A stretch of DNA of 64,000 bases from an uncultured Christensenella sp. (GCA_964620655.1 CAZUJW010000001.1:20651-84650); one strand, 5' to 3'. Shown: positions 2,369 to 59,140, numbered from the stretch's first letter. The notes: generated by a model from the sequence alone, not told the origin. A program made the numbers and translations.

Positions 2369-2407
2369 AAGTATATATTATAAAAAGGCTTGTCCTTCGG
2401 AAGGAAA

Positions 2408-5400
2408 ATGAAGAAAAAAGTTTTATTAGTAATCCTGATACTTTTGATAGCCGTGTCCGCCGTCGCTTGTTCGGCGGAAATCGAGTATAAAAAACCTTAC
2501 GTTACGGAAATCGCCGTTACGGACTTTTTCCACGCCGACGAGTACGTAGCGGGCGACTCGCTCAATCTCGAAGGGGCTAAACTTTTTATAAGATATTCGG
2601 ATCTGACCACCGAAGAAATCGACCTTACCGCGGAGATGTGTTCCGACTACGATATGAACGTACCGGAAACGGGCAAGGTAATTACGGTAAACTACGGCGG
2701 CAAGGCCACCACGTTTAAGGTCAACGTTTATGACCTTACTTTCAGCTCGGTGGAATTGGCTTCCGCTCCTACACGTACGCAGTACGTCGTCGGAGAAAAC
2801 GTATCCGCCGACGGAGCCACGATAAACGTTCGTTACGAAGGTGGCAAAACCATCACCGTCAAAGTTACAGAAAAAATGCTCGAAGAGTACGATAATCAGC
2901 GTGTCGGAGAGCAGAAGATTTACATTTCTTACTACGGTTTCAGACTTTTCTTCACCGTATATTTCGACGCGAAGACGGTTATTAAACTCGACGTTTTGCA
3001 TTTGCCTAATCAGAACGCCGTTTTCGTCGGCTACGGCGACAAGCTCGACCTTACGGGACTTCGTCTCCGCCTTACTTACGACAACGGGCTTATGCCGTCT
3101 AAGGAAATAGAAGAAGAAAAGGATAACGTAAAGGTTTATATCGACGACTCCGAAGTCCGCACCGTTATGGCAAGGATAGCTTATATTCCCGCAGATTATC
3201 CCGAAACGGTCACTTATTCTTACAGCGGAGCGGCTCTCGTGTCCATGGGCGAATACGTTTATCCCGATATGGAAATAGCGAGTAATCAGCTTCTCGAAAA
3301 CGTTCGGAGCAAGACTTACGGCAAAGTTACTGCAATTAAGGAAAAAACGATAGAAGTAAGTACTGTGGTGGAATACGAGGTCACTTCGCCCGAAGTGGAA
3401 ATCGGACAGATTCTGAAAGAAAACGAAGTCATCGGCAGAACGGGCGCGAACAACGTGTTTAACGACGGCGGAAGCGGAATAGTTCTTTCCGTCGGCGACG
3501 GCAAGGTGACAATGCAAACCGCACCCGTGGTGGCGTTTAACATTAACGTCAAGGACAGAAGCTATAAGAGTATGGAAATAGACCGCTTCCCCGTGACGGC
3601 GAAGTACGGCAGCGACGTAAGTTCCATTATACAAGGCGACAAGCTCGACCTTTCCACCGGCAGAGTGAGAGTGTATTACGACAACGGTGAAACCGAAGTT
3701 TATTCGATGGACAACGCCCTCATTAAAGTAATCAATTCCGACGACGACCTGTTGCGTTCGGAAATAAAAGATTTGGAATTCACCACCGTCGACAACGTGA
3801 CGGGCATAACAGCCGGCAGGTACGAACTTAAATACGGTCTTACCCATCCTTACGGCGACGCGGTGTCGGTAGTGGCTACCGTAGTCGACGAAACGGGCAA
3901 GAGCGTTTACGTTCAGCAGAACAGATACGTTTCTCTCGAAGAGGGACTCAATTACACCGTATCCCTTACCGCAACGTATAACGACGGCGGAATAATAAAA
4001 GTAAGCGAATGCGTCTATTATCTCGCTACGATAGGAGCGGGCGTAAGGCGTAATCAGCTCGATATAACCGCCGCGGGAAAACATAAACTTCTCGTAATAT
4101 ACGGCGGCGTGAAAGAAAACAACGTAAATATGATAGTCACCGTAATTCAGCGTTACGCCGTTCAGCTCAACGTACTTACGGAAACCGACAATATTAACGG
4201 TAAGTCGTTCAGAAAAGGCGACGTAATTCCCATAGCTACTTTACAATATACCATTACTTATAATAACGGCGACGTAAGCGAACCTACGGGCGTAACTATG
4301 GATATGCTCGGCGAAAACTGCACTTTGACTTGCGATACCGTCACCGACAGAAAAGAAATTTATTTTTACATACCCGGTACGGAAGTTACGAGCGCGACGA
4401 TGATTTGCAAAGTCGTTCCTATGCCAATTACTTCGATTGTTTTCGATACCTTGCCCGTGGACACGTTCCTTAAAGCGCAGGCGTCCGACACGGTAAACGT
4501 GGATTTGTCGGGCGGTGTACTCAGAGTTTATTACGAAAACGGCAAAGTGGAAATAATAGGTCAGTCGGGCGTTTTGCTTAACGACTTAGTCGGCAACGGC
4601 AGCGGGCAGAGAATAGTTCTTTCCTACAATTTCGCCGACAACAGGTTCCTTTCGTTAGAAGAAATAGCCGCGGGCGTTCATTACGAAGCTACGCTTACCT
4701 ACGTAGACGCAGACGGAGCGCAGGCGGATACCACGTTCGATTATTACATAATAGACCCCGATAACGCAATCAGCGCAATAAAAGTCGTGTTGAGTACCGA
4801 TTATTACAAACGTAATTACATTCAGTGCGAAGACTGGGATCTGACGGGCGTAAATATGATAGTGACTTACGCTAAAAACGGTACCACGAGTCAACCTATC
4901 CCCGTCACAAAAGAAATGATTTACGATTCCACTACCGACAATATCGGAAAGGATATCCCCGTCAAGGTAAGGTATCTCGGCAAAGTGGACGCGACTACGT
5001 TCAAGATTAACGTCGAAGCCCGTATGGAAACCGCCGTCTGCGTGGTTAAGACGGGTAAAGACTTGTACTACAACACCGATAAAGAACCCGATTTTTCGGG
5101 ATACAAATTCAGCCTTAGCTACAATGCGGGAGCGAGCGCGGAAGTAAGCGGTCTTACCGAGTTTACCGGAGCAAAAGACAAAGCGGGTTGGTGGTACGAA
5201 ATTTACGACGAAGACGGCTTGCAGCTTACGCAGTTCAGAAGAGTAGGCAGGAAGATAGTCCGTATCTACCACACTACGGAAATCAACGACGGAGGAACCA
5301 CGGCTTACGCTTACGTTTATACCGAATTTTCGATAGAAGTGTTGGAAAAGACCGTAAATATCGTTTCCGTGGCGTACGAAGACGATTCGCTCGGGACGTG

Positions 5401-7198
5401 GAATAACTTAGGAAAAGAACTTAACGTGCTCGAAATCACCGCTCACGGGTGGGAACTTTTCCTTAATAAATACGACTTGTCGAAAGGTTATATCGATGAC
5501 AAGTACCTTACCGTTTATTACGAAGACGCCTCGGTAGGCTACGTCAAAATAACTTCCGATATGGTAATAGGCTACGAAAAAGCCGATTTAACCAAGGGCT
5601 ACAGAGCGGTTACCGTTCGTTACAAGACCTTCTCGGCGGAAGTCTGCGTGCAGGTTCTTAACGCGACGTTCACATCGATAGCCGTGGAAAAAACTCCCGT
5701 AACCAACTTTATAGCGGGAAGCGAGCTTACCAAAAACGGCGGTATCGTAAGATGCGTGTACGAAGTCACCGACGGCGACGGCACGAAGTGGAACTTCTAT
5801 AAGTATCTCGATATGGACGACGATAACGTGACTTGCAGCGGATTTAACAGTAACATAAGCGAAAGTATAGATAACGTGTCGCAGGATATTACCGTTAAAT
5901 TCAGAGATAAGACCACTACTTATCCGATTATCGTCTACAACAAACAGGCGATAGAATTCAAGTATCAGAATACGATATTCTTCTACGGCAACACGAAAGC
6001 GGCGAGCGCGACCCCGTTGCAGAGAATACCCGAATTCGACTTGCCCGAGTCTTCCGATATTACGATGTGGTACGTAAGCAGCGAGTTTTTCATAAACGAA
6101 GAAGACTTCGAGCAGTACCTTATCGATCATAACGACGTAATCCGTGCCGAATTTATGTTGCTTATCTGTGAAGGCGGCGTTAAAAAGTACGTCAAAAAAG
6201 AATATTTGCAATCGAATTATCCGGTAGTTCCGCTCAAAAAAGGATACGATAGGTATATAGTAATGGAAGTTCTCGGCAATACGTATTACCGTCAGGAAAA
6301 CTATTGTTTGCAAAAATATACCGTTATACCTAAGGTTATCGAAGTCAAGGTAGTGTCTTACACCGAAGACGCGTACACTCTCGACTACACCGTCAGCGGC
6401 GAAAACAACTTGCCGAAAGTTATTCTTTATCTCTACGATAATCTCGACGAGATAGTAAGTTCTTACGTCGGTAAGAAAGGCGTTACTTCCATAGAAATGC
6501 TCAGCCCGAACAAGAACTTCTTCCGTATCGGTATATTCGTGGCGGGGAGTTTTACCGACGTCGATTTGTTGAACGAAATATTCGCCGCTATTACGAGTAA
6601 ATGCAACGAGTATCTGCAATCGACGAGCGTAAGCGCGAACGTGGAGAAAAAACGTAAGGGTATAAACGTGGGAGAATACAACGGTATCGCTCCCGAATAC
6701 GTATCCTACCGCTTGTCTGCGGGCGAAACGCTCACCCTTAACGGTATACTCGAACTGCTCGAAGGAAGTCCCGAACTGAAAAATTACGATTATTCCACGG
6801 GATTATACGACGTAGCGGTAGGCACGTTGAAACACGGCGAAGACCACTATACCATCGACTTCACGGGCGGAAAATATAAAGTGACTACGAGAGCGATAGA
6901 CGAGTACGCGTGTACGGGAAGTTGGGATAGGAGTACGAATACGCTTACCGTATCCATTGCCGACTACCTTGCGCGCGGAATATCGATGTACGTCGTCAAT
7001 ACCGCCGACAAGCAGTCGAGAGAGATAGGAGAAGACGAATTCTCGTACTATACCGCCGCAGATATGAGCGACGGAACCAAACTTACCGAAAAGCCTTCGA
7101 CCGCGGGTACTTATTACGTCAAAGTGGGAGCGGACGATAGTTTCAGTATGAACGGAACCAACGTAACAATAACGTTTACGTTAATAATAACAGAGTAA
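2408..7198 (+). CDS. Giant cell-surface lipoprotein with many bacterial Ig-like (Big_3-type) domains
   Basis: Lipoprotein signal MKKKVLLVILILLIAVSAVAC|S after a GGAAGGAA SD. The track's TTG start at 2390 is less likely. It has recurrent modules of about 75-90 aa with the pattern GD.LDL.G..L.V.Y.NG (for example GDKLDLTGLRLRLTYDNG, GDKLDLSTGRVRVYYDNGETEV, VDLSGGVLRVYYENGKVE). Confidence 0.8.
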   Translation: MKKKVLLVILILLIAVSAVACSAEIEYKKPYVTEIAVTDFFHADEYVAGDSLNLEGAKLFIRYSDLTTEEIDLTAEMCSDYDMNVPETGKVITVNYGGKATTFKVNVYDLTFSSVELASAPTRTQYVVGENVSADGATINVRYEGGKTITVKVTEKMLEEYDNQRVGEQKIYISYYGFRLFFTVYFDAKTVIKLDVLHLPNQNAVFVGYGDKLDLTGLRLRLTYDNGLMPSKEIEEEKDNVKVYIDDSEVRTVMARIAYIPADYPETVTYSYSGAALVSMGEYVYPDMEIASNQLLENVRSKTYGKVTAIKEKTIEVSTVVEYEVTSPEVEIGQILKENEVIGRTGANNVFNDGGSGIVLSVGDGKVTMQTAPVVAFNINVKDRSYKSMEIDRFPVTAKYGSDVSSIIQGDKLDLSTGRVRVYYDNGETEVYSMDNALIKVINSDDDLLRSEIKDLEFTTVDNVTGITAGRYELKYGLTHPYGDAVSVVATVVDETGKSVYVQQNRYVSLEEGLNYTVSLTATYNDGGIIKVSECVYYLATIGAGVRRNQLDITAAGKHKLLVIYGGVKENNVNMIVTVIQRYAVQLNVLTETDNINGKSFRKGDVIPIATLQYTITYNNGDVSEPTGVTMDMLGENCTLTCDTVTDRKEIYFYIPGTEVTSATMICKVVPMPITSIVFDTLPVDTFLKAQASDTVNVDLSGGVLRVYYENGKVEIIGQSGVLLNDLVGNGSGQRIVLSYNFADNRFLSLEEIAAGVHYEATLTYVDADGAQADTTFDYYIIDPDNAISAIKVVLSTDYYKRNYIQCEDWDLTGVNMIVTYAKNGTTSQPIPVTKEMIYDSTTDNIGKDIPVKVRYLGKVDATTFKINVEARMETAVCVVKTGKDLYYNTDKEPDFSGYKFSLSYNAGASAEVSGLTEFTGAKDKAGWWYEIYDEDGLQLTQFRRVGRKIVRIYHTTEINDGGTTAYAYVYTEFSIEVLEKTVNIVSVAYEDDSLGTWNNLGKELNVLEITAHGWELFLNKYDLSKGYIDDKYLTVYYEDASVGYVKITSDMVIGYEKADLTKGYRAVTVRYKTFSAEVCVQVLNATFTSIAVEKTPVTNFIAGSELTKNGGIVRCVYEVTDGDGTKWNFYKYLDMDDDNVTCSGFNSNISESIDNVSQDITVKFRDKTTTYPIIVYNKQAIEFKYQNTIFFYGNTKAASATPLQRIPEFDLPESSDITMWYVSSEFFINEEDFEQYLIDHNDVIRAEFMLLICEGGVKKYVKKEYLQSNYPVVPLKKGYDRYIVMEVLGNTYYRQENYCLQKYTVIPKVIEVKVVSYTEDAYTLDYTVSGENNLPKVILYLYDNLDEIVSSYVGKKGVTSIEMLSPNKNFFRIGIFVAGSFTDVDLLNEIFAAITSKCNEYLQSTSVSANVEKKRKGINVGEYNGIAPEYVSYRLSAGETLTLNGILELLEGSPELKNYDYSTGLYDVAVGTLKHGEDHYTIDFTGGKYKVTTRAIDEYACTGSWDRSTNTLTVSIADYLARGISMYVVNTADKQSREIGEDEFSYYTAADMSDGTKLTEKPSTAGTYYVKVGADDSFSMNGTNVTITFTLIITE

Positions 7199-7217: not shown

Positions 7218-8237
7218 ATGGAAAACAACATTCTTGTGAAGGGCAAAGGTTTAATCACGAAAATAGCGGTCAGCTCGGTCAACGGCGTAGACGCGTTTGA
7301 AGGAAAGAGAAACAAAAGAATTTTCATCGACGTTCTGCAAGACGAAGCCAACGAAAACGTAGTTCTTATAGCGTATTGCGTTTTAGACTCCACCGCACAT
7401 TTTATTATAAAGTCCAACGTTAAAAGCGACGCGGATAAGTATATCGCAGCCGTTACGGGCAGATATGCGGCAAGTTACCGCAGCAACGGCAGAAGCGGAA
7501 ATCCGTTAAGAAGCGATTACGTTTCGCAAAAAATAAAGAGCGAAAACTTAAGCGGAGCGGTAGCGTACGTTCATAGCCTTGCTCCCACGGCACCCTCCGA
7601 TTATCCCTATTGCAGCTACGGATATCTTTCCGAAGGCATTCACGGCGGCACTGCCGTAATAATCGCCGAAAACGGCGGCGAAATGAGCGAAAACGAATTT
7701 TCCGATTGGCTTTCCGCAGATTCGGGCAAAGGTTTTAAGACGATAAATTCAGGCAAAGAAAGTTTCTCTTCCGTATTGAAAGAATGCAGAGAAAAATATC
7801 TCGTCGGCGACGTGAGCGAAGGTAATATTGTGTACGTTCTCGCAGACTTGTGTCAGCGTAGCGGAGCTAAGTACAAAAAAGCCGCCCGCGCGCTCGGCGT
7901 TTCTTATAAGGAAAGAAGAGACCTTATGATATGCACTCTGTTGGAACTTATGCAAAACAGGGGATACAACTTCTCCGAAGCCATCGCCCTTATGCAAATA
8001 TATACCGAAAACAGACACGCTTTGCTTCTCGATTGCATAGTGGAACAAAACAGACAAAACGCTTACTCTTACGACCATATAATAAACTCTTTCGGCGTAG
8101 ACGATTTCTACTACGATATACTTGCCGAAATAATGAGAGGACTTCACAGAAAGTATGCTTTCGGCTTCGAAGAACTCTGCGTCAAGTTCCACGTTCAGAA
8201 CGATATTCTGTCCATAAGAGCAAGGTGCGGTTTTTAA
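7218..8237 (+). CDS. IS200/RAYT-like Y1 (HUH) transposase-fold protein (COG1943-like) with a degenerate HUH motif and an uncharacterised C-terminal half
   Basis: The N-terminal 135 aa align by eye with the COG1943 pattern: IAYCVLDSTAHFII vs AYCLM.NH.HLL, GRYAASY vs GRYAQ.F, and AYVHSLAP...DYPYCSY vs YIH.NPV...DYPWSSY. An AGGAGA SD precedes the start, which is 19 nt after the giant gene's stop. Confidence 0.65.
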   Translation: MENNILVKGKGLITKIAVSSVNGVDAFEGKRNKRIFIDVLQDEANENVVLIAYCVLDSTAHFIIKSNVKSDADKYIAAVTGRYAASYRSNGRSGNPLRSDYVSQKIKSENLSGAVAYVHSLAPTAPSDYPYCSYGYLSEGIHGGTAVIIAENGGEMSENEFSDWLSADSGKGFKTINSGKESFSSVLKECREKYLVGDVSEGNIVYVLADLCQRSGAKYKKAARALGVSYKERRDLMICTLLELMQNRGYNFSEAIALMQIYTENRHALLLDCIVEQNRQNAYSYDHIINSFGVDDFYYDILAEIMRGLHRKYAFGFEELCVKFHVQNDILSIRARCGF

Positions 8238-8428
8238 GAAGCGTGTATATTACGTTTCGTTACGCCGCCGAAAACGAAGTCGGATTTACCGAAAATTTGT
8301 TTGTTCGACGAATCGGCAAAAAGAAGCGGATAAAGAATTAAGTTTTCGACGGCTTTTGCAAAAACTGCGTCTACCGTACTCAGTACGCCTACGCCTTGTT
8401 TTCGCAAAAAATAAACGCAATCTACACG
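8238..8428 (+). repeat. Intergenic repeat family U, copy U2 (full length, with the 56-nt hairpin core at 8354-8409)
   Basis: Starts at the nucleotide after the stop codon of the HUH-like gene. It is the reverse-complement match of 8957-9140 and the same-strand match of 55347-55536. Confidence 0.65.
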
Positions 8429-8505
8429 TTTCTATTTTTGATAATAAATATTGACGATATAATAAAATAATGCTAAAATATATCTATTGACACGGAGGTA
8501 ATAAA

Positions 8506-8859
8506 GTGGAACAGCAACAAGTACAGGCTACGCGCAAAAGAAGAAGTTTGAGATCGTGTTTTTCCGGCACGGCAGGGAAGTATTTTTTCCTTCGTTTGGG
8601 GCTTGCTTTGCTGTCGATAATACCTATAATCGGACTCCCGAACGCCGTATGCATCTGGGAAAGATACAGATGCAGGAACACGCAAATAGTAGGTATGCCC
8701 TTGCAATTCACGGGAAGAGCGGGAGAGTTGTTAAAAAAAATGATCGTCTGGGGCTTTTTTACGATAATCACGATAGGGATTTACGGCTTGATACTTGCTC
8801 CCGTACGTTTCGACCAGTGGAAAGCGGAACACACCATATTCGGACCGGTGACCATGTAA
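8506..8859 (+). CDS. Small membrane protein, DUF898/YjgN-like
   Basis: GTG start after a GGAGG SD. The pattern F.GTAGKYF...LLSI..IGLP...ERYRCRNTQI.G.PLQFTGRAGELL...TIITIGIYG matches the DUF898 repeat-unit logic. 117 aa with 2-3 TM. Confidence 0.5.
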   Translation: MEQQQVQATRKRRSLRSCFSGTAGKYFFLRLGLALLSIIPIIGLPNAVCIWERYRCRNTQIVGMPLQFTGRAGELLKKMIVWGFFTIITIGIYGLILAPVRFDQWKAEHTIFGPVTM

Positions 8860-8892
8860 GTATCGCGGTGATTAAAAAAGGTAATAAAAGTA

Positions 8893-8917
8893 GGGAAGCA
8901 CAGGCTTCCCTTTTTTT
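8893..8917 (+). terminator. Rho-independent terminator
   Basis: gggaagc-acag-gcttccc followed by TTTTTTT. Confidence 0.7.
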
Positions 8918-8956
8918 GCGGAAATAACTTTTACAACGGAATTATCAGGAGCGGCT

Positions 8957-9140
8957 AAGGTGCGTTGATTTTTTGCGAAAACGGAGCGTAGGCGTACTAA
9001 GTACGGTAGACGACGTTTTCGCGAAAGCCACGAAAAACTAAAATCTTAATCCGCTTTCTATTCTGCGACTAAAAGTAGATTTTGAAAATTTACGTAAGGT
9101 CGTTTTTTGCGGCGTAAATAAGCGTGCATTAGACGCTCCT
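8957..9140 (-). repeat. Intergenic repeat family U, copy U3 (full length, core at 8971-9026)
   Basis: Inverted relative to U2. Its non-core part aligns with U1 (for example tttgaaaattta, cgttttttgcggcgtaaa, gacgctcc). Confidence 0.65.
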
Positions 9141-9145
9141 AATTG

Positions 9146-9174
9146 TTGAAAACAACGTTTAATAATGGTATTAT
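9146..9174 (+). promoter_or_regulatory. Sigma-A-like promoter placed so that transcription would start at the uvrC ATG
   Basis: TTGAAA, 17-nt spacer, TATTAT. The A of the uvrC ATG (9181) is 7 nt past the -10 hexamer. There is no SD in the 25 nt upstream. The promoter abuts the end of repeat U3. Confidence 0.4.
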
Positions 9175-9180
9175 TATAAT

Positions 9181-10992
9181 ATGAGCGTAATCAGCGATAA
9201 ACTTGCCACGCTGCCCGAACAAAGCGGCGTATATATAATGCTTGACGAGTACGACAACGTACTCTACGTAGGCAAAGCAAAAATTCTCAAAAACAGAGTA
9301 AGACAGTATTTTCATAAGTGCGTCAAGAACGATAAAACTATGGCGCTCGTCGAGAAGATTAAGAATTTCCGCTATATAATCACGCCCAACGAGTACGAAG
9401 CGTTGATTTTGGAAAACAACCTGATTAAGGAATACAACCCGCCGTATAATATTCTTCTTAAAGACGATAAAACCTATCCTTATATAAGGATAAACGTTAA
9501 GGAAAAATATCCGAGGATAGAAGTCTGTTACAAACTAAGAAGCGACGGGGCAAGATATTTCGGTCCGTATATGCTCGGTATCTCGGTACGAGATATAATG
9601 GAAGTTATCGAGGCGGTTTTTCCGTTAAGAACCTGTCGCAATATGCCGAAAAAGGAGTGTCTTAATTACCATCTGAAGAAGTGCCTTGCGCCATGCGTGG
9701 GCAAAGTCACCCCCGAAGAGTACGGAAAGGTAGTTAAGGACGTAATAAAGTTTCTTAACGGCGACGACGCTTTCGTGTCGGAACTTATCGCAAATAAGAT
9801 GACGAAGTTCGCCGAAATGGAAGAATTCGAACTCGCTCTGCATTACAGAAACGTATCCGAGATACTCGAAAAACTCGTCAGAAAACAAACTATTCCGTTC
9901 AAACAGGACGTAAATATCGACGTTTTCACGTTCGCAACAAACGGTATGTATTCCGTAGTCAATTGTTTCGCCGTAAGGGGCGGCAAGTTTTTGGGCGGTG
10001 ACAATTATCCTTATTACGAAGTGGAAAAAAGCAACTGCCTTGCTTCATTTATCATGCAGTATTACGAAAAAAATCCCGTTTTGTGCAGCGAGATTATCGT
10101 AGGAGAAGAGTTGGAATTCAAGGCGGAGTTAGCCGATTATCTGAGCGTAAAAGCGGGCAAAAAAATAAATATCGCCACGCCTACGGGCGGAATAAGAAAA
10201 CAGCTTGTCGAAATGGGCGAAACCAACTGCGCCGAGTATCTGTCGCGGCAACTCGAACACTTCAATAAGTATCAGGAGATGACGAAAGGTGCGGTCGCGC
10301 AGCTTATGGAAACGCTGAATTTGCCGTGCCTTCCGAGAAGAATGGAGTGTTATGACGTTTCGCACATCGGCGGAACTAACAAGGTAGCAAGTATGGTAGT
10401 CTTTATCGACGGCGAAAAATCGTCGAAAAACTATCGCCATTTCAAGATAAGAACCGTACAGGGAAACAACGATTTCGCGTCCATGTACGAAGCTCTGTCG
10501 AGAAGACTTACCAAAATCGGCAAGTCGGAAGATTTATCATTTAACGCGAAACCAGACCTTATAGTAGTAGACGGAGGCAAAGGACAGCTTACTTACGCTC
10601 TTAAAGCGGCGGAAGACGCAGGCGTGAACGTGAACTTTATAAGCCTTGCCAAAAGGGAAGAAGAAGTCTTTTTACCGGGAAGAGAAGACAGCGTGATTCT
10701 TCCGCGAAACAGCCTTGCGTTAAAACTTATAGTAAGGATAAGAGACGAAGCGCATCGCTTCGCCATTACACATCACAGGAATTTAAGGCTGAAACAAATG
10801 ACGGAAACCGAGCTTACGAAAATCCCCGGTATAGGCAAAGAGAAAGCTAAAATCTTACTCGGAGCGTTTAAAAAAATCGATGCGATTTCGGCGGCTACTG
10901 AAGAAGAACTTACCGCGGTAAAGGGCATTTCTAAAAAGGACGCCAAAGAAATAAAGCGGTATTACGAAGGAGAAAACGATGCTGAAATATAA
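9181..10992 (+). CDS. uvrC: Excinuclease ABC subunit C
   Basis: GIY-YIG N-terminus (GVYIMLDEYDNVLYVGKAKILKNRVRQYF), the UvrC central and endonuclease regions, and a C-terminal (HhH)2. 603 aa. Confidence 0.95.
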   Translation: MSVISDKLATLPEQSGVYIMLDEYDNVLYVGKAKILKNRVRQYFHKCVKNDKTMALVEKIKNFRYIITPNEYEALILENNLIKEYNPPYNILLKDDKTYPYIRINVKEKYPRIEVCYKLRSDGARYFGPYMLGISVRDIMEVIEAVFPLRTCRNMPKKECLNYHLKKCLAPCVGKVTPEEYGKVVKDVIKFLNGDDAFVSELIANKMTKFAEMEEFELALHYRNVSEILEKLVRKQTIPFKQDVNIDVFTFATNGMYSVVNCFAVRGGKFLGGDNYPYYEVEKSNCLASFIMQYYEKNPVLCSEIIVGEELEFKAELADYLSVKAGKKINIATPTGGIRKQLVEMGETNCAEYLSRQLEHFNKYQEMTKGAVAQLMETLNLPCLPRRMECYDVSHIGGTNKVASMVVFIDGEKSSKNYRHFKIRTVQGNNDFASMYEALSRRLTKIGKSEDLSFNAKPDLIVVDGGKGQLTYALKAAEDAGVNVNFISLAKREEEVFLPGREDSVILPRNSLALKLIVRIRDEAHRFAITHHRNLRLKQMTETELTKIPGIGKEKAKILLGAFKKIDAISAATEEELTAVKGISKKDAKEIKRYYEGENDAEI

Positions 10993-53081: not shown

Positions 53082-53144
53082 GATAAATTCCCAAAGAAAA
53101 TTCCACTTTAAATCCTGCTGTGGAATTTTCTTTGGGAATTTATC
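53082..53144. repeat. Hairpin family B, copy B1 (perfect 25-bp stem, 13-nt loop)
   Basis: gataaattcccaaagaaaattccac / gtggaattttctttgggaatttatc are exact reverse complements. There is an A-run on the left flank and no T-run on the right. Confidence 0.7.
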
Positions 53145-54432: not shown

Positions 54433-55344
54433 ATGGCAAACAGACGATTCAGAAATAACAAGAAACCTTTCGTAAAAAACGATTATAATCCGCCTTATCC
54501 CGCCGAACTTATGGCGGAATCGGTGGATACGTTGAAATTACGCGAAGAGACAGCAAATCTTTTGAAAACCGCAGGCATAAGCACTCTACGAGACCTTGCC
54601 GTGCGCGAAGAAAAGGATTTTTATCGCATACACACTTTCAATAAAAAGAACCTTCTCGACGTAAAGAACGCTTTACGTGCGAAAAAAGTGGCGATAAAAC
54701 CCACGCCCGAAGTTAAACCCGCGACGGAAAACGCAGGACAGGACAATAAAAAACCCGACAATAAACAAGAGCAGGGCAAAAAATATTTGCAAAGACCGCA
54801 GAATAACGGAGACAGACGCAACGGAAAAGAAAACGCCGAAAAAGATAAATACGGGCTAAACTCCGATTTCGTTATGACCACTCATCCGCAAAGACCGCCC
54901 CGTCCGAAGACCGTCCCCGTCAAGGAAGAACACGATATCTACGTCAAGGTAAACAAAGGCGGCAAGTGGGGCTTTAAGGACAGAAACGGAAAACAAGTGG
55001 TAGAACCCGTTTACGACGAAGTTTTTAGCTATAAAGAAAACGTTTGTTGCGTGGAAAAGGATGAAAGGTTCGGGTACATCAACAGAGAAGGCGAGCTGAT
55101 CATACCGTTGATTTACGACTGTGCGACTTCTTTCTCCGAAGGTTACGCCTGCGTATATAAACGCGAAAAATGCGGTTATATCGATATGAATAACGAAACC
55201 GTAGTAGAATTTACTTTCGATGCCGGCACACCCGTATCGGACGGCGAATGCCGCGTAAAACGCGACGGGAAATGGGGCGAAATGCACATAGCAAAGAATG
55301 AAAACGGCGGGGTATCGGTAAGCGAAATAAGATGGATAACTTAA
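54433..55344 (+). CDS. Fusion protein: RNA polymerase alpha-CTD-like HhH domain, a basic low-complexity linker, and WG (KWG-type) repeats
   Basis: SVDTLKLREETANLLKTAGISTLRDLAVREEKDFYRIHTFNKKNLLDVKNAL resembles the RpoA C-terminal domain. C-terminal units are GKWGFKDRNGKQVVEPVYD, ERFGYINREGELIIPLIYD, EKCGYIDMNNETVVEFTFD and GKWGEM. Confidence 0.7.
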   Translation: MANRRFRNNKKPFVKNDYNPPYPAELMAESVDTLKLREETANLLKTAGISTLRDLAVREEKDFYRIHTFNKKNLLDVKNALRAKKVAIKPTPEVKPATENAGQDNKKPDNKQEQGKKYLQRPQNNGDRRNGKENAEKDKYGLNSDFVMTTHPQRPPRPKTVPVKEEHDIYVKVNKGGKWGFKDRNGKQVVEPVYDEVFSYKENVCCVEKDERFGYINREGELIIPLIYDCATSFSEGYACVYKREKCGYIDMNNETVVEFTFDAGTPVSDGECRVKRDGKWGEMHIAKNENGGVSVSEIRWIT

Positions 55345-55346
55345 TG

Positions 55347-55536
55347 AGCGTTCATATTACGTCTCTTTACGCAGTTAGGAACGCGATATAAATAATCATA
55401 AATAGCAAACTATATTCCGATAACGATAAAAGCGGACGTGAATTTATAGTTCCTTACTGCTTTTGCGAAAGCGTCGGCTACCGTACTTAGTACGCCTACG
55501 CCTAACTTTCACAAAAAATAAACGCAATCTGACCGC
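55347..55536 (+). repeat. Intergenic repeat family U, copy U4 (full length, core at 55461-55516)
   Basis: Same-strand match to U2: gagcgt 5' end, ttacgc, aaagcgga, tagtt, the 56-nt core, and an aaaaaataaacgcaatctgacc 3' end. Coordinates +/-1. Confidence 0.6.
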
Positions 55537-55691
55537 TTATTTACACGTCTTTACGCAGTTAGGAACGCGATATAAATAATCATAAATAGCAAACTATATT
55601 CCGATAAAAATAAAAGCGGACGTGAATTTATAGTTACTTACTGCGTAAAGAGACGCAATATGACTACTTATTTACACGTCTTTACGCAATT
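55537..55691 (+). repeat. Family U, copy U5 (core-less, with 14-16 nt terminal inverted repeats) plus a truncated third unit
   Basis: About 95 nt nearly identical to the U4 body. It ends in actgcgtaaagagacg, the reverse complement of the U4 5' segment cgtctctttacgcagt. It is followed by a repeat of ttatttacacgtctttacgca. Coordinates +/-1. Confidence 0.55.
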
Positions 55692-55700
55692 AAAATATAA

Positions 55701-55737
55701 AAATAAATCCTTGCAAAGCGCAAGGATTTATTTTTTG
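55701..55737. terminator. Bidirectional rho-independent terminator between convergent genes
   Basis: aaatccttgc-N5-gcaaggattt flanked by an A-run and a T-run. Confidence 0.65.
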
Positions 55738-55771
55738 TAAATCGAGTATCAAAACACAATTTTCAGCCGTT

Positions 55772-57211
55772 TTATTCCGTAACGGCGTTTTTCGTAGAGT
55801 CGTTTTTTTCGGTTACGGGAGAGTCCGGGCGGGAAAGTTGTTTATAAGTTAAGGCAAGTATTATTACCGAAGCGACGAAGGTAAGGGCATCGGACACGGG
55901 CATCGAGTACAACACGCCGTCGAGTCCGAAAAACAGCGGCAAGATAAGAGCAAAACCCACTCCGAATACCACTTCTCGCAGCACGGATAGTAGGGTTGAA
56001 GTCCACGGTTTGCCCATAGCTTGCAGGAATATAAACGCCGCTTTGTTTACGCAGGCTATAGGCATAAGACACAGATAGGTGCGGAAACATTTTACAGCGA
56101 ATTCGGTGTAGTAAGAACTTTCGTTTTGCGCGCCGAAGATAGCGATAAGTTGCCGCGGTAAGAACTCAACTGCGATAAGTCCTATTACGCCTACGATAAA
56201 TTCGGTGATAAGGAGCTTAGTTAACAGTTCTTTTGCACGGGAATTGAGTCCCGCTCCTATATTGTATCCGACTATCGGAATACTTCCCGCGGCGAGACCT
56301 ATCGACACGGATATTACTATCTGAAAGAATTTCATCACTATACCGATTACCGCCATCGGAATTTGCGAATATTCGGGCTGACCGAAAATTTCGTCCATAG
56401 CCCCGTATTTTTTAGTCATATTCTGTATTGCCGCCATTGCCGCGACGAGAGATATTTGTGCCAAAAAACTGCATATTCCCAAAGGAATAAAGCGTTTTAT
56501 TGTGGCAAACTTTAACATAAAATCGGTTTTCGTTATTTTAATCGTTTTCATTTTGCAAAGATAAATTATCGACAGCGCGGCGGTTACTACCTGTCCTATG
56601 GAAGTTGCGATGGCGGCTCCCGCCATTCCCCATTTGGTGACGAATATGAATATCGGATCGAGAATAGTATTCGCTACCGCACCGGCAAGCGTAGAAACCA
56701 TAGCAAAATTCGGACTGCCGTCGGCGCGGATTACGGGGTTCATAGCCTGTCCGAAAACGTAGAACGGTATTCCCGCCGCTATGTAGATAAAATATTCTTT
56801 GGAATAGGCAAAGGTCTGCTCGTTGACGTTGCCGCCGAAGGCTATAATAAGCGGATCCATAAAGATAAAGTAAACCGCAGCAAGCAAAACTCCTGCGATT
56901 ATCGAAAGAATTACGGCGTTGCCGACGGCGGTACCCGCTTCACCGTTTTCGCCGTTACCTAATTTTATACTTACGTACGCGCAGCACCCGTCGCCTATCA
57001 TTACCGCTATCGCGAGTGCAATTACGGTAAGGGGAAATATTACCGTGTTTGCGGCGTTGCCGTACGAGCCGAGATAGTCGGCATTGGCAATAAATATCTG
57101 GTCGACTATGTTGTAAAGAGCGGCGACAATTAAAGCTACCGTGCAGGGAAGACAGTATTTAAGCATAAGTTTGCCTATCGGTTTTTTCGCTAAAAAATCA
57201 TTTTTTTGCAT
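55772..57211 (-). CDS. MATE-family efflux transporter
   Basis: 12-TM MATE architecture with an N-terminal KKPIGKLMLKYCLPCTVA...Y.IVDQIFI motif. The start is moved to ATG 57211 after a GAGGTG SD. Confidence 0.9.
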   Translation of the reverse strand: MQKNDFLAKKPIGKLMLKYCLPCTVALIVAALYNIVDQIFIANADYLGSYGNAANTVIFPLTVIALAIAVMIGDGCCAYVSIKLGNGENGEAGTAVGNAVILSIIAGVLLAAVYFIFMDPLIIAFGGNVNEQTFAYSKEYFIYIAAGIPFYVFGQAMNPVIRADGSPNFAMVSTLAGAVANTILDPIFIFVTKWGMAGAAIATSIGQVVTAALSIIYLCKMKTIKITKTDFMLKFATIKRFIPLGICSFLAQISLVAAMAAIQNMTKKYGAMDEIFGQPEYSQIPMAVIGIVMKFFQIVISVSIGLAAGSIPIVGYNIGAGLNSRAKELLTKLLITEFIVGVIGLIAVEFLPRQLIAIFGAQNESSYYTEFAVKCFRTYLCLMPIACVNKAAFIFLQAMGKPWTSTLLSVLREVVFGVGFALILPLFFGLDGVLYSMPVSDALTFVASVIILALTYKQLSRPDSPVTEKNDSTKNAVTE

Positions 57212-57243
57212 TTTTTTCACCTCAAAAAATCTAACTTTTCGCA

Positions 57244-57280
57244 AAAAAATGCGTAAGTCGTCAAAAACTCGGACTTACGC
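57244..57280 (-). terminator. Rho-independent terminator (gpr terminator and/or attenuator of the MATE gene)
   Basis: gcgtaagtc-N12-gacttacgc followed on the minus strand by ATTTTTTTG. It ends about 33 nt upstream of the MATE start codon. Confidence 0.6.
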
Positions 57281-59078: not shown

Positions 59079-59140
59079 GGTGAATTCCCAAAGTAAATTT
59101 CACCACTTTCCTATTGTGGAATTCACTTTGGGAATTCACC
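59079..59140. repeat. Hairpin family B, copy B2
   Basis: ggtgaattcccaaagt...actttgggaattcacc is a perfect 16-bp outer stem, with an imperfect inner stem ending in gtggaatt. It shares the core with B1. Confidence 0.65.

Follow-up and report, generated by a model that had tools for sequence, protein, structure and literature searches.

A repeat with five units in the window

The window analysed here, a 64,000-nt stretch of DNA from an uncultured Christensenella sp., contains five units of an intergenic repeat (U1 to U5), all of which were recovered by repeat finding together with an nhmmer profile of the unit. U1 (2176-2324, + strand) precedes a gene for a ~1600-aa Big_3 surface protein (2390-7198), which is followed by an ORF of 339 amino acids (7218-8237, + strand; ORF-339). 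U2 (8238-8432, - strand) is a complete repeat of ~195 nt (nhmmer match 8432-8233, E = 1.4e-47) whose 3' end abuts the stop codon of ORF-339, and U3 (8947-9140, + strand) lies beyond a gene for a small DUF898 membrane protein (8506-8859), with uvrC just downstream. U2 and U3 are separate units in different spacers, 617 nt apart from core to core. Farther along the window, the 3' end of U4 (55345-55540, - strand; nhmmer E = 3.1e-54) overlaps the stop codon of an ORF at 54433-55344, and U5 (55541-55671, - strand) stands in tandem with U4. Units of the window family end in terminal inverted repeats (GGAGYGG...CCRCTCC), and no target-site duplication is visible around them.

The stop codons abutted or overlapped by the 3' ends of U2 and U4 are the TAA codons (8235-8237 and 55342-55344) of convergent genes, and the distance from core to stop codon is exactly 134 nt in both cases; this placement may reflect either a target preference or a stop codon donated by the unit. 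A repeat family separate from U1-U5 is also present in the window, as two related long palindromes at 53082-53144 and 59079-59140 with 25-nt arms (100% and 92% complementary) and loops of 12-13 nt (GATAAATTCCCAAAGAAAATTCCAC...), each of them upstream of an ORF.

U2, U3 and U4 share a 22-nt core, CTACCGTACTNAGTACGCCTAC, which occurs without mismatch at 8371-8392 (+), 8988-9009 (-) and 55478-55499 (+). The corresponding pattern, GTAGGCGTAC-NNN-GTACGGTAG, is found three times in the window, with none expected (0 matches in 100 dinucleotide shuffles). Around each exact core lies an inverted repeat, giving the 56-nt blocks at 8354-8409, 8971-9026 and 55461-55516 that the first-pass annotation of this DNA had delimited. 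When the window was scanned with a covariance model of the hairpin, the three known hairpins alone were recovered; the match to the hairpin of U2 (- strand) extends over 8347-8416 and scores 75 bits, and its apex reads GTAGGCGTACTGAGTACGGTAG on the - strand. As that annotation had also noted, the outer arms vary among the three copies and remain complementary. Such mismatches as occur are G.T on the strand that carries GTAG. DNA folding z-scores of the hairpins range from -2.4 to -2.9 for the GTAG strand and from -1.1 to -1.5 for the opposite strand. The hairpin is real and non-random.

The hairpin within a predicted three-way junction

On the GTAG strand, the hairpin constitutes helix P2 of the ~195-nt unit, which is predicted to fold into a three-way junction of helices P1, P2 and P3. 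P1 is a long stem that closes the unit by pairing both of its ends and often terminates in ...GCAGAA. P2 is a variable, covarying stem of 13-17 bp capped by the near-invariant apex C-GUAGG-[CGUAC-UNN-GUACG]-GGUAG-AG. P3 is a long-range stem drawn around a further hairpin and the (C)AAC(A/C)UUA motif that comes after this hairpin, and UAGAAA-like linkers are also present. In U3, P1 corresponds to 8947-8967/9120-9140, P2 to 8971-9026 and P3 to 9027-9036/9104-9113. The same layout is common to independent minimum-free-energy folds of eight families of the repeat, which are described below.

Covariation was seen at three depths of sampling. For the window family, 17 full units were aligned with plain MAFFT and passed to RNAalifold, which predicted 44 pairs in P1, P2 and P3 with double changes in 25 of them; 95.6% of cells pair in this register, compared with 38-53% when it is slid, and none of 500 shuffles matches it. 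When 36 hairpins were aligned without gaps, both partners had changed in 12 of the 16 outer-stem pairs; the share of pairing cells is 89.7% (35-48% when slid), and 92 double-change cells compare with 31.8 +/- 4.4 in shuffles. Across all families (84 distinct hairpins), 16 of 16 outer pairs covary and 279 double-change cells stand against 80 +/- 7, in an alignment that was guided by a covariance model and fitted to the structure, so that these counts lean towards the structure. Plain MAFFT across families lets RNAalifold detect the invariant inner stem only, because registers differ among families; the covariance-model alignment solved these registers.

The two strands are not equivalent. The GTAG strand is the more stable one in 76 of 83 distinct hairpins (-25.6 vs -19.6 kcal/mol), and G.U outnumbers A.C by 73 to 12 in units of the window family and by 90 to 22 in the hairpins compared across families. 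Taken with this asymmetry, the covariation indicates that the selection for pairing proposed in the first-pass annotation is right, and that it extends beyond the hairpin to a three-way junction on one strand. Inspection of the internal loop by eye found no register that matches a canonical kink-turn, loop E or sarcin-ricin motif, and these candidates were set aside.

Distribution in gut Clostridia and variation of the apex

A scan with the core pattern, taking one genome per species, returned at least 114 loci. Among those listed, four are chance matches in unrelated GC-rich genomes, and the remainder come from gut or rumen MAGs labelled Clostridia, Eubacteriales, Oscillospiraceae or Christensenella; a scan of metagenomes added 26 further loci of the same kinds. 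The core had no match on viral contigs, on which ground a phage origin was rejected. After masking of the core, the flanks of the loci listed fell into eight multi-member families and 11 singletons (four of which are the chance matches), and at least 15 flank families that are otherwise unrelated in sequence have hairpins capped by the same core. Copies among the loci listed number at least 39 for family 0, at least 38 for family 1 and at least 15 for family 2, to which the window units belong. Unit length is ~195 nt in the window genome and 200-275 nt in other lineages. At least 16 copies occur in one MAG (JAGBEE01), and many copies lie at contig ends, by which the repeat family fragments the assemblies of the MAGs that carry it.

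Part of the apparent fixity of the apex arises because the loci were gathered by the core pattern, a form of collection that inflates apex conservation. Among ~13 copies that were not selected by the pattern, the exact 22-mer is present in ~5, and the others include GTTGG (twice, L006), GTCGG (L087 and L012), GTAGA (L004) and ACAGG...TCGAG (L108). A second type of apex, CGAAG-[6-7-bp hairpin]-CGAGAG, occurs within the same unit architecture in L016 (~545-625, +) and L077 (~4545-4625, -), in each case less than ~250 nt from a unit with the GUAGG/GGUAG apex on the same contig. The apex thus appears, from these copies, to behave as an exchangeable module. Its most constant parts are the inner CGTAC/GTACG stem and the purine-rich internal loop, and the expectation that GTAG might prove invariant did not hold, as some unselected copies have GTTG, GTCG, ACAG or the CGAAG/CGAGAG apex in its place. 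The units with the alternative apex keep the same CAAC motif, which led us to reject a pairing of the GUAG loop with the downstream CAAC.

Two units were found broken right after the 5' GTAG of the apex, one (L052, -, ~144-422) by ~280 nt of foreign sequence with inverted ends of its own and the other (L012, -, 5330-5428) by an insert of ~100 nt.

Insertion into spacers and loss of the hairpin

The spacers that hold U1, U2 and U3 are only 53-152 nt long in related loci (L115, L116, L118 and L119/L120) and contain neither the hairpin nor a unit; the five related loci (L115, L116, L118, L119 and L120; ~94 kb in total) are without any repeat. Since these spacers are short and empty in relatives, the window units are lineage-specific insertions into old spacers. 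Family 0 is a 274-nt element with inverted repeats (CAGNNTGTCGA) at its ends, and 13 of its 18 distinct copies are flanked by direct duplications of 21-34 nt (L018, L025, L026, L039, L045, L047, L053, L060, L071, L074, L078, L087 and L102). In every case the duplicated sequence is a perfect hairpin that has runs of A and T, differs from copy to copy and represents a host terminator; a family flanked in this manner by duplicated host terminator hairpins is mobile. The hairpin, and not a fixed stagger, seems to determine how long the target duplication is. Crude gene calling assigns 39 copies to convergent and six to divergent intergenic spacers.

Several features of a MITE are present: the units are small, have no ORF, occur in many copies and are polymorphic for presence and absence at orthologous sites. 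Within the loci, clustering of ORFs yielded no recurrent transposase ORF and no distant occurrence of the family-0 end motif was found, and no binding protein or autonomous parent was found in ~0.9 Mb of flanking sequence.

The 56-nt block had been described in the first-pass annotation as an insert, present or absent between direct repeats of an arm, and here the direction must be reversed. The orthologue of U1 in a syntenic locus (L121, 2920-3120), where the orthologue of ORF-339 is 89% identical, has the full hairpin (2937-3006), exact core included. In L004, whose DNA is ~90% identical, the U5 orthologue has a hairpin at 4301-4370 with an apex that differs by one base (GTAGACGTAC). As the orthologues in sister genomes carry the hairpin, the window copies have lost P2. 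The accompanying statement that U1 and U5 each keep a single arm is correct for U1, where one TTTCGCGAAA arm remains at 2199-2208, and incorrect for U5, where the whole hairpin block is replaced by CTCTTTAC and neither arm is left.

The TTTCGCGAAA arm is itself palindromic, so that paired arms are also direct repeats, and the loss in U1 reads as a clean deletion between two palindromic arms. In U5, the 5' strand is an almost exact complement of the unit's own 3' strand, a complementarity that would fit templated repair across the junction. The spacers orthologous to that of U3 (in L070 and L121) retain internally deleted remnants only, and the U2 spacer in L121 retains only a remnant of ~50 nt; these units, too, have shrunk by deletion between internal repeats. 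The hairpin would then be missing from U1 and U5 because units decay by deletion between their own internal repeats.

Next to the tandem of U4 and U5, and to a bidirectional terminator at 55699-55735, lies a further indel: the orthologous locus L004 has 137 nt in place of the segment 55644-57391, which includes a gene for a MatE transporter (55772-57244), and a similar gap is seen in the alignment with L096.

Are the units RNA genes?

A covarying structure on one strand raises the possibility of a true family of non-coding RNA genes or of a cis-acting RNA (for example, a protein-sponging small RNA or a stabiliser in mRNA leaders or trailers) whose copies arose by duplication and whose spread is secondary to a cellular function. 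This explanation would account for the three-way junction with its covariation and excess of G.U, as well as for the recurrence of the apex and of (C)AAC(A/C)UUA in families that have no other sequence in common. It would also suit family 3 (L002, L014, L069, L092 and L105), in which five of five units point in the sense direction and have their 3' end 7-10 nt upstream of a Shine-Dalgarno sequence and ATG. The genes that follow these units are unrelated (glmM-like, mnmE-like, an SDR and a Zn-ribbon protein), and the position, which looks like that of a 5' leader, hints at a role at the RNA level.

Several observations weigh against it. Near-identical copies number dozens within a genome and break assemblies; copies of family 0 are flanked by target duplications; and orthologous copies are freely deleted between sister genomes. 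Promoter prediction on 8200-9200 (U2 and U3) and 55300-55800 (U4 and U5) returned none, and in the same two segments no conserved promoter or terminator frames the units. In spacers between co-directional genes the orientation of units shows no preference (12 same, 15 opposite), nor is it related to GC skew (37 vs 37) or to the strand of local genes (36 vs 40); hence neither an obligatory read-through nor a DNA mechanism specific to one replication strand is indicated. A known RNA family was discarded as a candidate, since Rfam release 15 holds nothing that matches: at gathering score the window yields tRNAs only, and no relevant match emerged from 8200-9200 at E up to 10 or from loci of the eight families at E up to 1. 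A literature search with the core string returned unrelated papers only. Overall, we regard a dedicated RNA gene or regulatory RNA as an unlikely account of these units.

ORF-339 and the REP/RAYT explanation

The first-pass annotation had likened the hairpin to the REP elements of Proteobacteria and had put forward ORF-339 as the protein that acts on it. In this explanation, a Y1 HUH protein, here the product of ORF-339, would bind the GTAG mini-hairpin as single-stranded DNA and might also cut it. Much about the hairpin invites the comparison: GTAG stands directly 5' of a palindrome (GTAG, G and CGTAC-N3-GTACG in three of three window copies), the copies are extragenic and at gene 3' ends, the hairpin structure is strand-specific, and U2 abuts the ORF-339 stop codon.

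The protein itself lends some weight to the proposal. Sequence searches with ORF-339 gave no match in Pfam, NCBIfam or PDB, and its family is small, with ~27 clusters of ~340-aa proteins. Its AlphaFold model (pLDDT 81) consists of an N-terminal beta-alpha-beta-beta-alpha-beta-alpha domain and a helical C-terminal part of ~200 aa, and among solved structures the best Foldseek match is a RAYT-REP complex (4er8_A; probability 1.00, TM-score on target 0.59, with an E of 1.1e-3 that is slightly over the 0.001 line), followed by the TnpA transposase structures of ISDra2, IS608 and IS200. An exhaustive profile search returned 648 matches, of which those of ~250 aa carry Pfam Y1_Tnp above cut-off. RAYTs, moreover, are typically single-copy and vertically inherited and are linked to REPs in some groups only (PMC5581495), so that the synteny of ORF-339 does not by itself exclude a link to REPs.

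The residues expected of an active enzyme are eroded, however. The HUH position (H-x-H) reads T-A-H in ORF-339 and R-V-Y or R-A-A in distant members of the family, both of its histidines being lost in P0026 and P0020, and the catalytic tyrosine of YIHxNP, which ORF-339 keeps, is replaced by F, A or E in P0023, P0026 and P0020. The genomic setting agrees no better with a REP system. Orthologues of ORF-339 (32-89% identity) sit in a conserved cluster (UDG, the 1600-aa Big_3 gene, ORF-339, DUF898, uvrC, a HAD hydrolase, murB, whiA and dnaE), and no hairpin or unit occurs within 14-21 kb of those in L115, L116, L118 and L119/L120, the related loci in which the spacers of the cluster are short and hairpin-free. 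In the window, ORF-339 has a unit on its 3' side only, its 5' side lying 19 nt from the upstream ORF with no hairpin. Searches with tblastn and a Y1 HMM found no homologue of ORF-339 near the other cores in the 114 + 26 core-bearing loci listed; the HMM detected one unrelated, canonical RAYT-like ORF (L058, 6587-7087, 166 aa, with NHIHII and YIYENP), which lies at a distance of 2 kb from a unit and has no core on its flanks. The coding sequence of this RAYT contains a 36-nt inverted repeat with GTAG (6699-6734 and 6873-6908).

The hairpin, for its part, is one helix embedded in a larger conserved fold of ~195 nt and not a free-standing REP, so that filing it among REPs is not supported. The BIME-like pairs that had been suggested as a check were not seen: there are no REP doublets (REPIN/BIME), each unit has a single apex, and U2 and U3 do not form a pair. 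The GTAG tetranucleotide varies in unselected copies, and orientation has no bias related to replication. Thus, by the features examined, the marks that define a REP/RAYT system, namely flanking REPs, an intact HUH motif and tyrosine, and doublets, appear to be absent, and a RAYT-like fold beside a GTAG hairpin is insufficient to call one. What survives of the proposal is the kinship of ORF-339, whose Y1/RAYT fold is supported by 4er8 and Y1_Tnp; its role as the partner of the hairpin is not borne out, given the degenerate HUH motif, the lack of flanking hairpins and a cluster that is free of repeats in relatives. Judged from its model and residues, ORF-339 is probably a domesticated Y1 derivative with a degenerate IS200/RAYT-like fold, inactive as a nuclease, and we consider the REP/RAYT explanation highly doubtful.

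Scarcely credible is an ordinary intrinsic terminator, which had been named as the alternative to a REP-like element, or a double-stranded operator for a dimeric regulator: the palindromic CGTAC-N3-GTACG, the position of units near gene 3' ends and, in the window family, the 3-5 T that follow the inner hairpin on either strand would suit it, but a terminator scan called none of the three window hairpins yet called the true terminators that adjoin them, most other families lack a T-run on either strand, the flanks of the palindrome are direct (GTAG...GTAG) and not symmetric, termination does not need a 22-nt motif conserved across unrelated stems, and selection confined to one strand speaks against a duplex site.

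A structured, putatively MITE-like repeat

We favour, with reasonable though far from complete confidence, the interpretation that the 56-nt block represents the P2 helix of a structured, MITE-like repeat that is intergenic, non-autonomous and present in many copies, with the apex as a putative handle for a protein. This interpretation builds on the repeat family itself, on its covarying and strand-asymmetric structure, on the insertion and deletion polymorphism of its units and on the duplication of host hairpins around one family. With no match in Rfam release 15, the repeat family of gut Clostridia is apparently undescribed. We know of no partner transposase for it.

Under the MITE-like interpretation, the life of a unit might run as follows. 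First, units would spread as non-autonomous elements into the spacers of conserved gene clusters, preferentially at gene 3' ends. Second, the GTAG strand would fold into the three-way junction, probably within read-through transcripts of neighbouring genes. There, a trans-acting protein, likewise conserved among these Clostridia, could recognise the unit by its conserved apex. The apex would presumably be read in single-stranded form, for which a transcript is the likelier substrate (for instance, read-through RNA at terminators or a 5' leader) and single-stranded DNA during mobilisation the less likely one. Finally, copies would erode through deletions between their own palindromic arms.

A bolder proposal, which we hold only tentatively and think improbable, is that the repeats constitute a mobile element of a new, structure-defined class in Clostridia, in which the invariant GUAG-flanked mini-hairpin on the three-way junction would be the handle gripped by a mobilisation machinery. 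This machinery would integrate at intrinsic terminators by cutting the base of the terminator hairpin on both strands, thereby duplicating the hairpin over a length set by its structure and not by a fixed stagger (21-34 nt). If this were true, the strand-specific fold would mark an RNA or single-strand intermediate, a mode that bacterial MITEs are not known to use.

For small interspersed repeats, Proteobacteria and a few pathogens are well covered; the uncultured Clostridia of the gut, which dominate the metagenomes of rumen and human gut, have to our knowledge hardly been surveyed for them. The present family reshapes spacers beside housekeeping genes such as uvrC and the glmM-like and mnmE-like genes. 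It joins transposon-like behaviour with an RNA-like covarying junction and a motif that recurs across lineages, and both its partner protein and its mode of spread are directly testable.

Comparison with known systems

The repeats share individual traits with four groups of known elements. Integron attC sites likewise conserve structure over sequence and have covarying stems, and it is the folded form of one single strand that is read. In the present units, however, the R''/R' boxes (RYYYAAC / GTTRRRY) are absent and the conserved part is apical instead of basal, there is neither an integrase nor a cassette array, and the DUF898 gene between U2 and U3, whose locus is repeat-free in relatives, is not a cassette; attC was rejected as an identity for the units on account of the missing boxes and the non-cassette gene. 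The IS200/IS605 derivatives (PATEs) resemble the units in that hairpin ends are recognised on one strand, by Y1 transposases, and in that non-autonomous derivatives are common. They differ in that each unit described here has one conserved hairpin and terminal inverted repeats, one family has target duplications, orientation shows no bias with replication, and the flanks contain no tnpA or tnpB.

With REP/REPIN elements and RAYTs of Proteobacteria, the units have in common, at least in copies gathered by the core pattern, a conserved GTAG directly 5' of a short palindrome, an extragenic location in many copies per genome, mostly at gene 3' ends, and a strand-specific hairpin that tolerates G.T; the window genome also encodes a single-copy protein of Y1 fold nearby. 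In contrast to a free REP of 20-40 nt or a doublet, the hairpin here is an internal arm of a 195-275-nt junction, a second GTAG follows the palindrome in direct orientation, and the same 22-mer is found across lineages whose units share nothing else. The nearby Y1-like protein also departs from a RAYT in its degenerate HUH motif, its 200-aa helical C-terminal extension and its lack of flanking hairpins.

The remaining group is that of structured repeats of MITE-like kind (PMC3049150, PMC2229807), to which belong the Correia elements (CREE/NEMIS) of Neisseria, ERIC/IRU of enterobacteria and BOX, RUP and SPRITE of Streptococcus pneumoniae. These elements are likewise 100-300 nt long without an ORF, have terminal inverted repeats that form a long stem, occupy spacers near terminators in many copies, are modular with an optional internal module (as boxB) and decay by internal deletion. 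The Clostridia repeat differs in its junction of three helices, which includes two long-range stems and clearly covaries, in conserving an apex motif across orders of Clostridia and, in family 0, in duplicating a whole host hairpin of 21-34 nt where the better-known families duplicate a fixed 2-9 bp.
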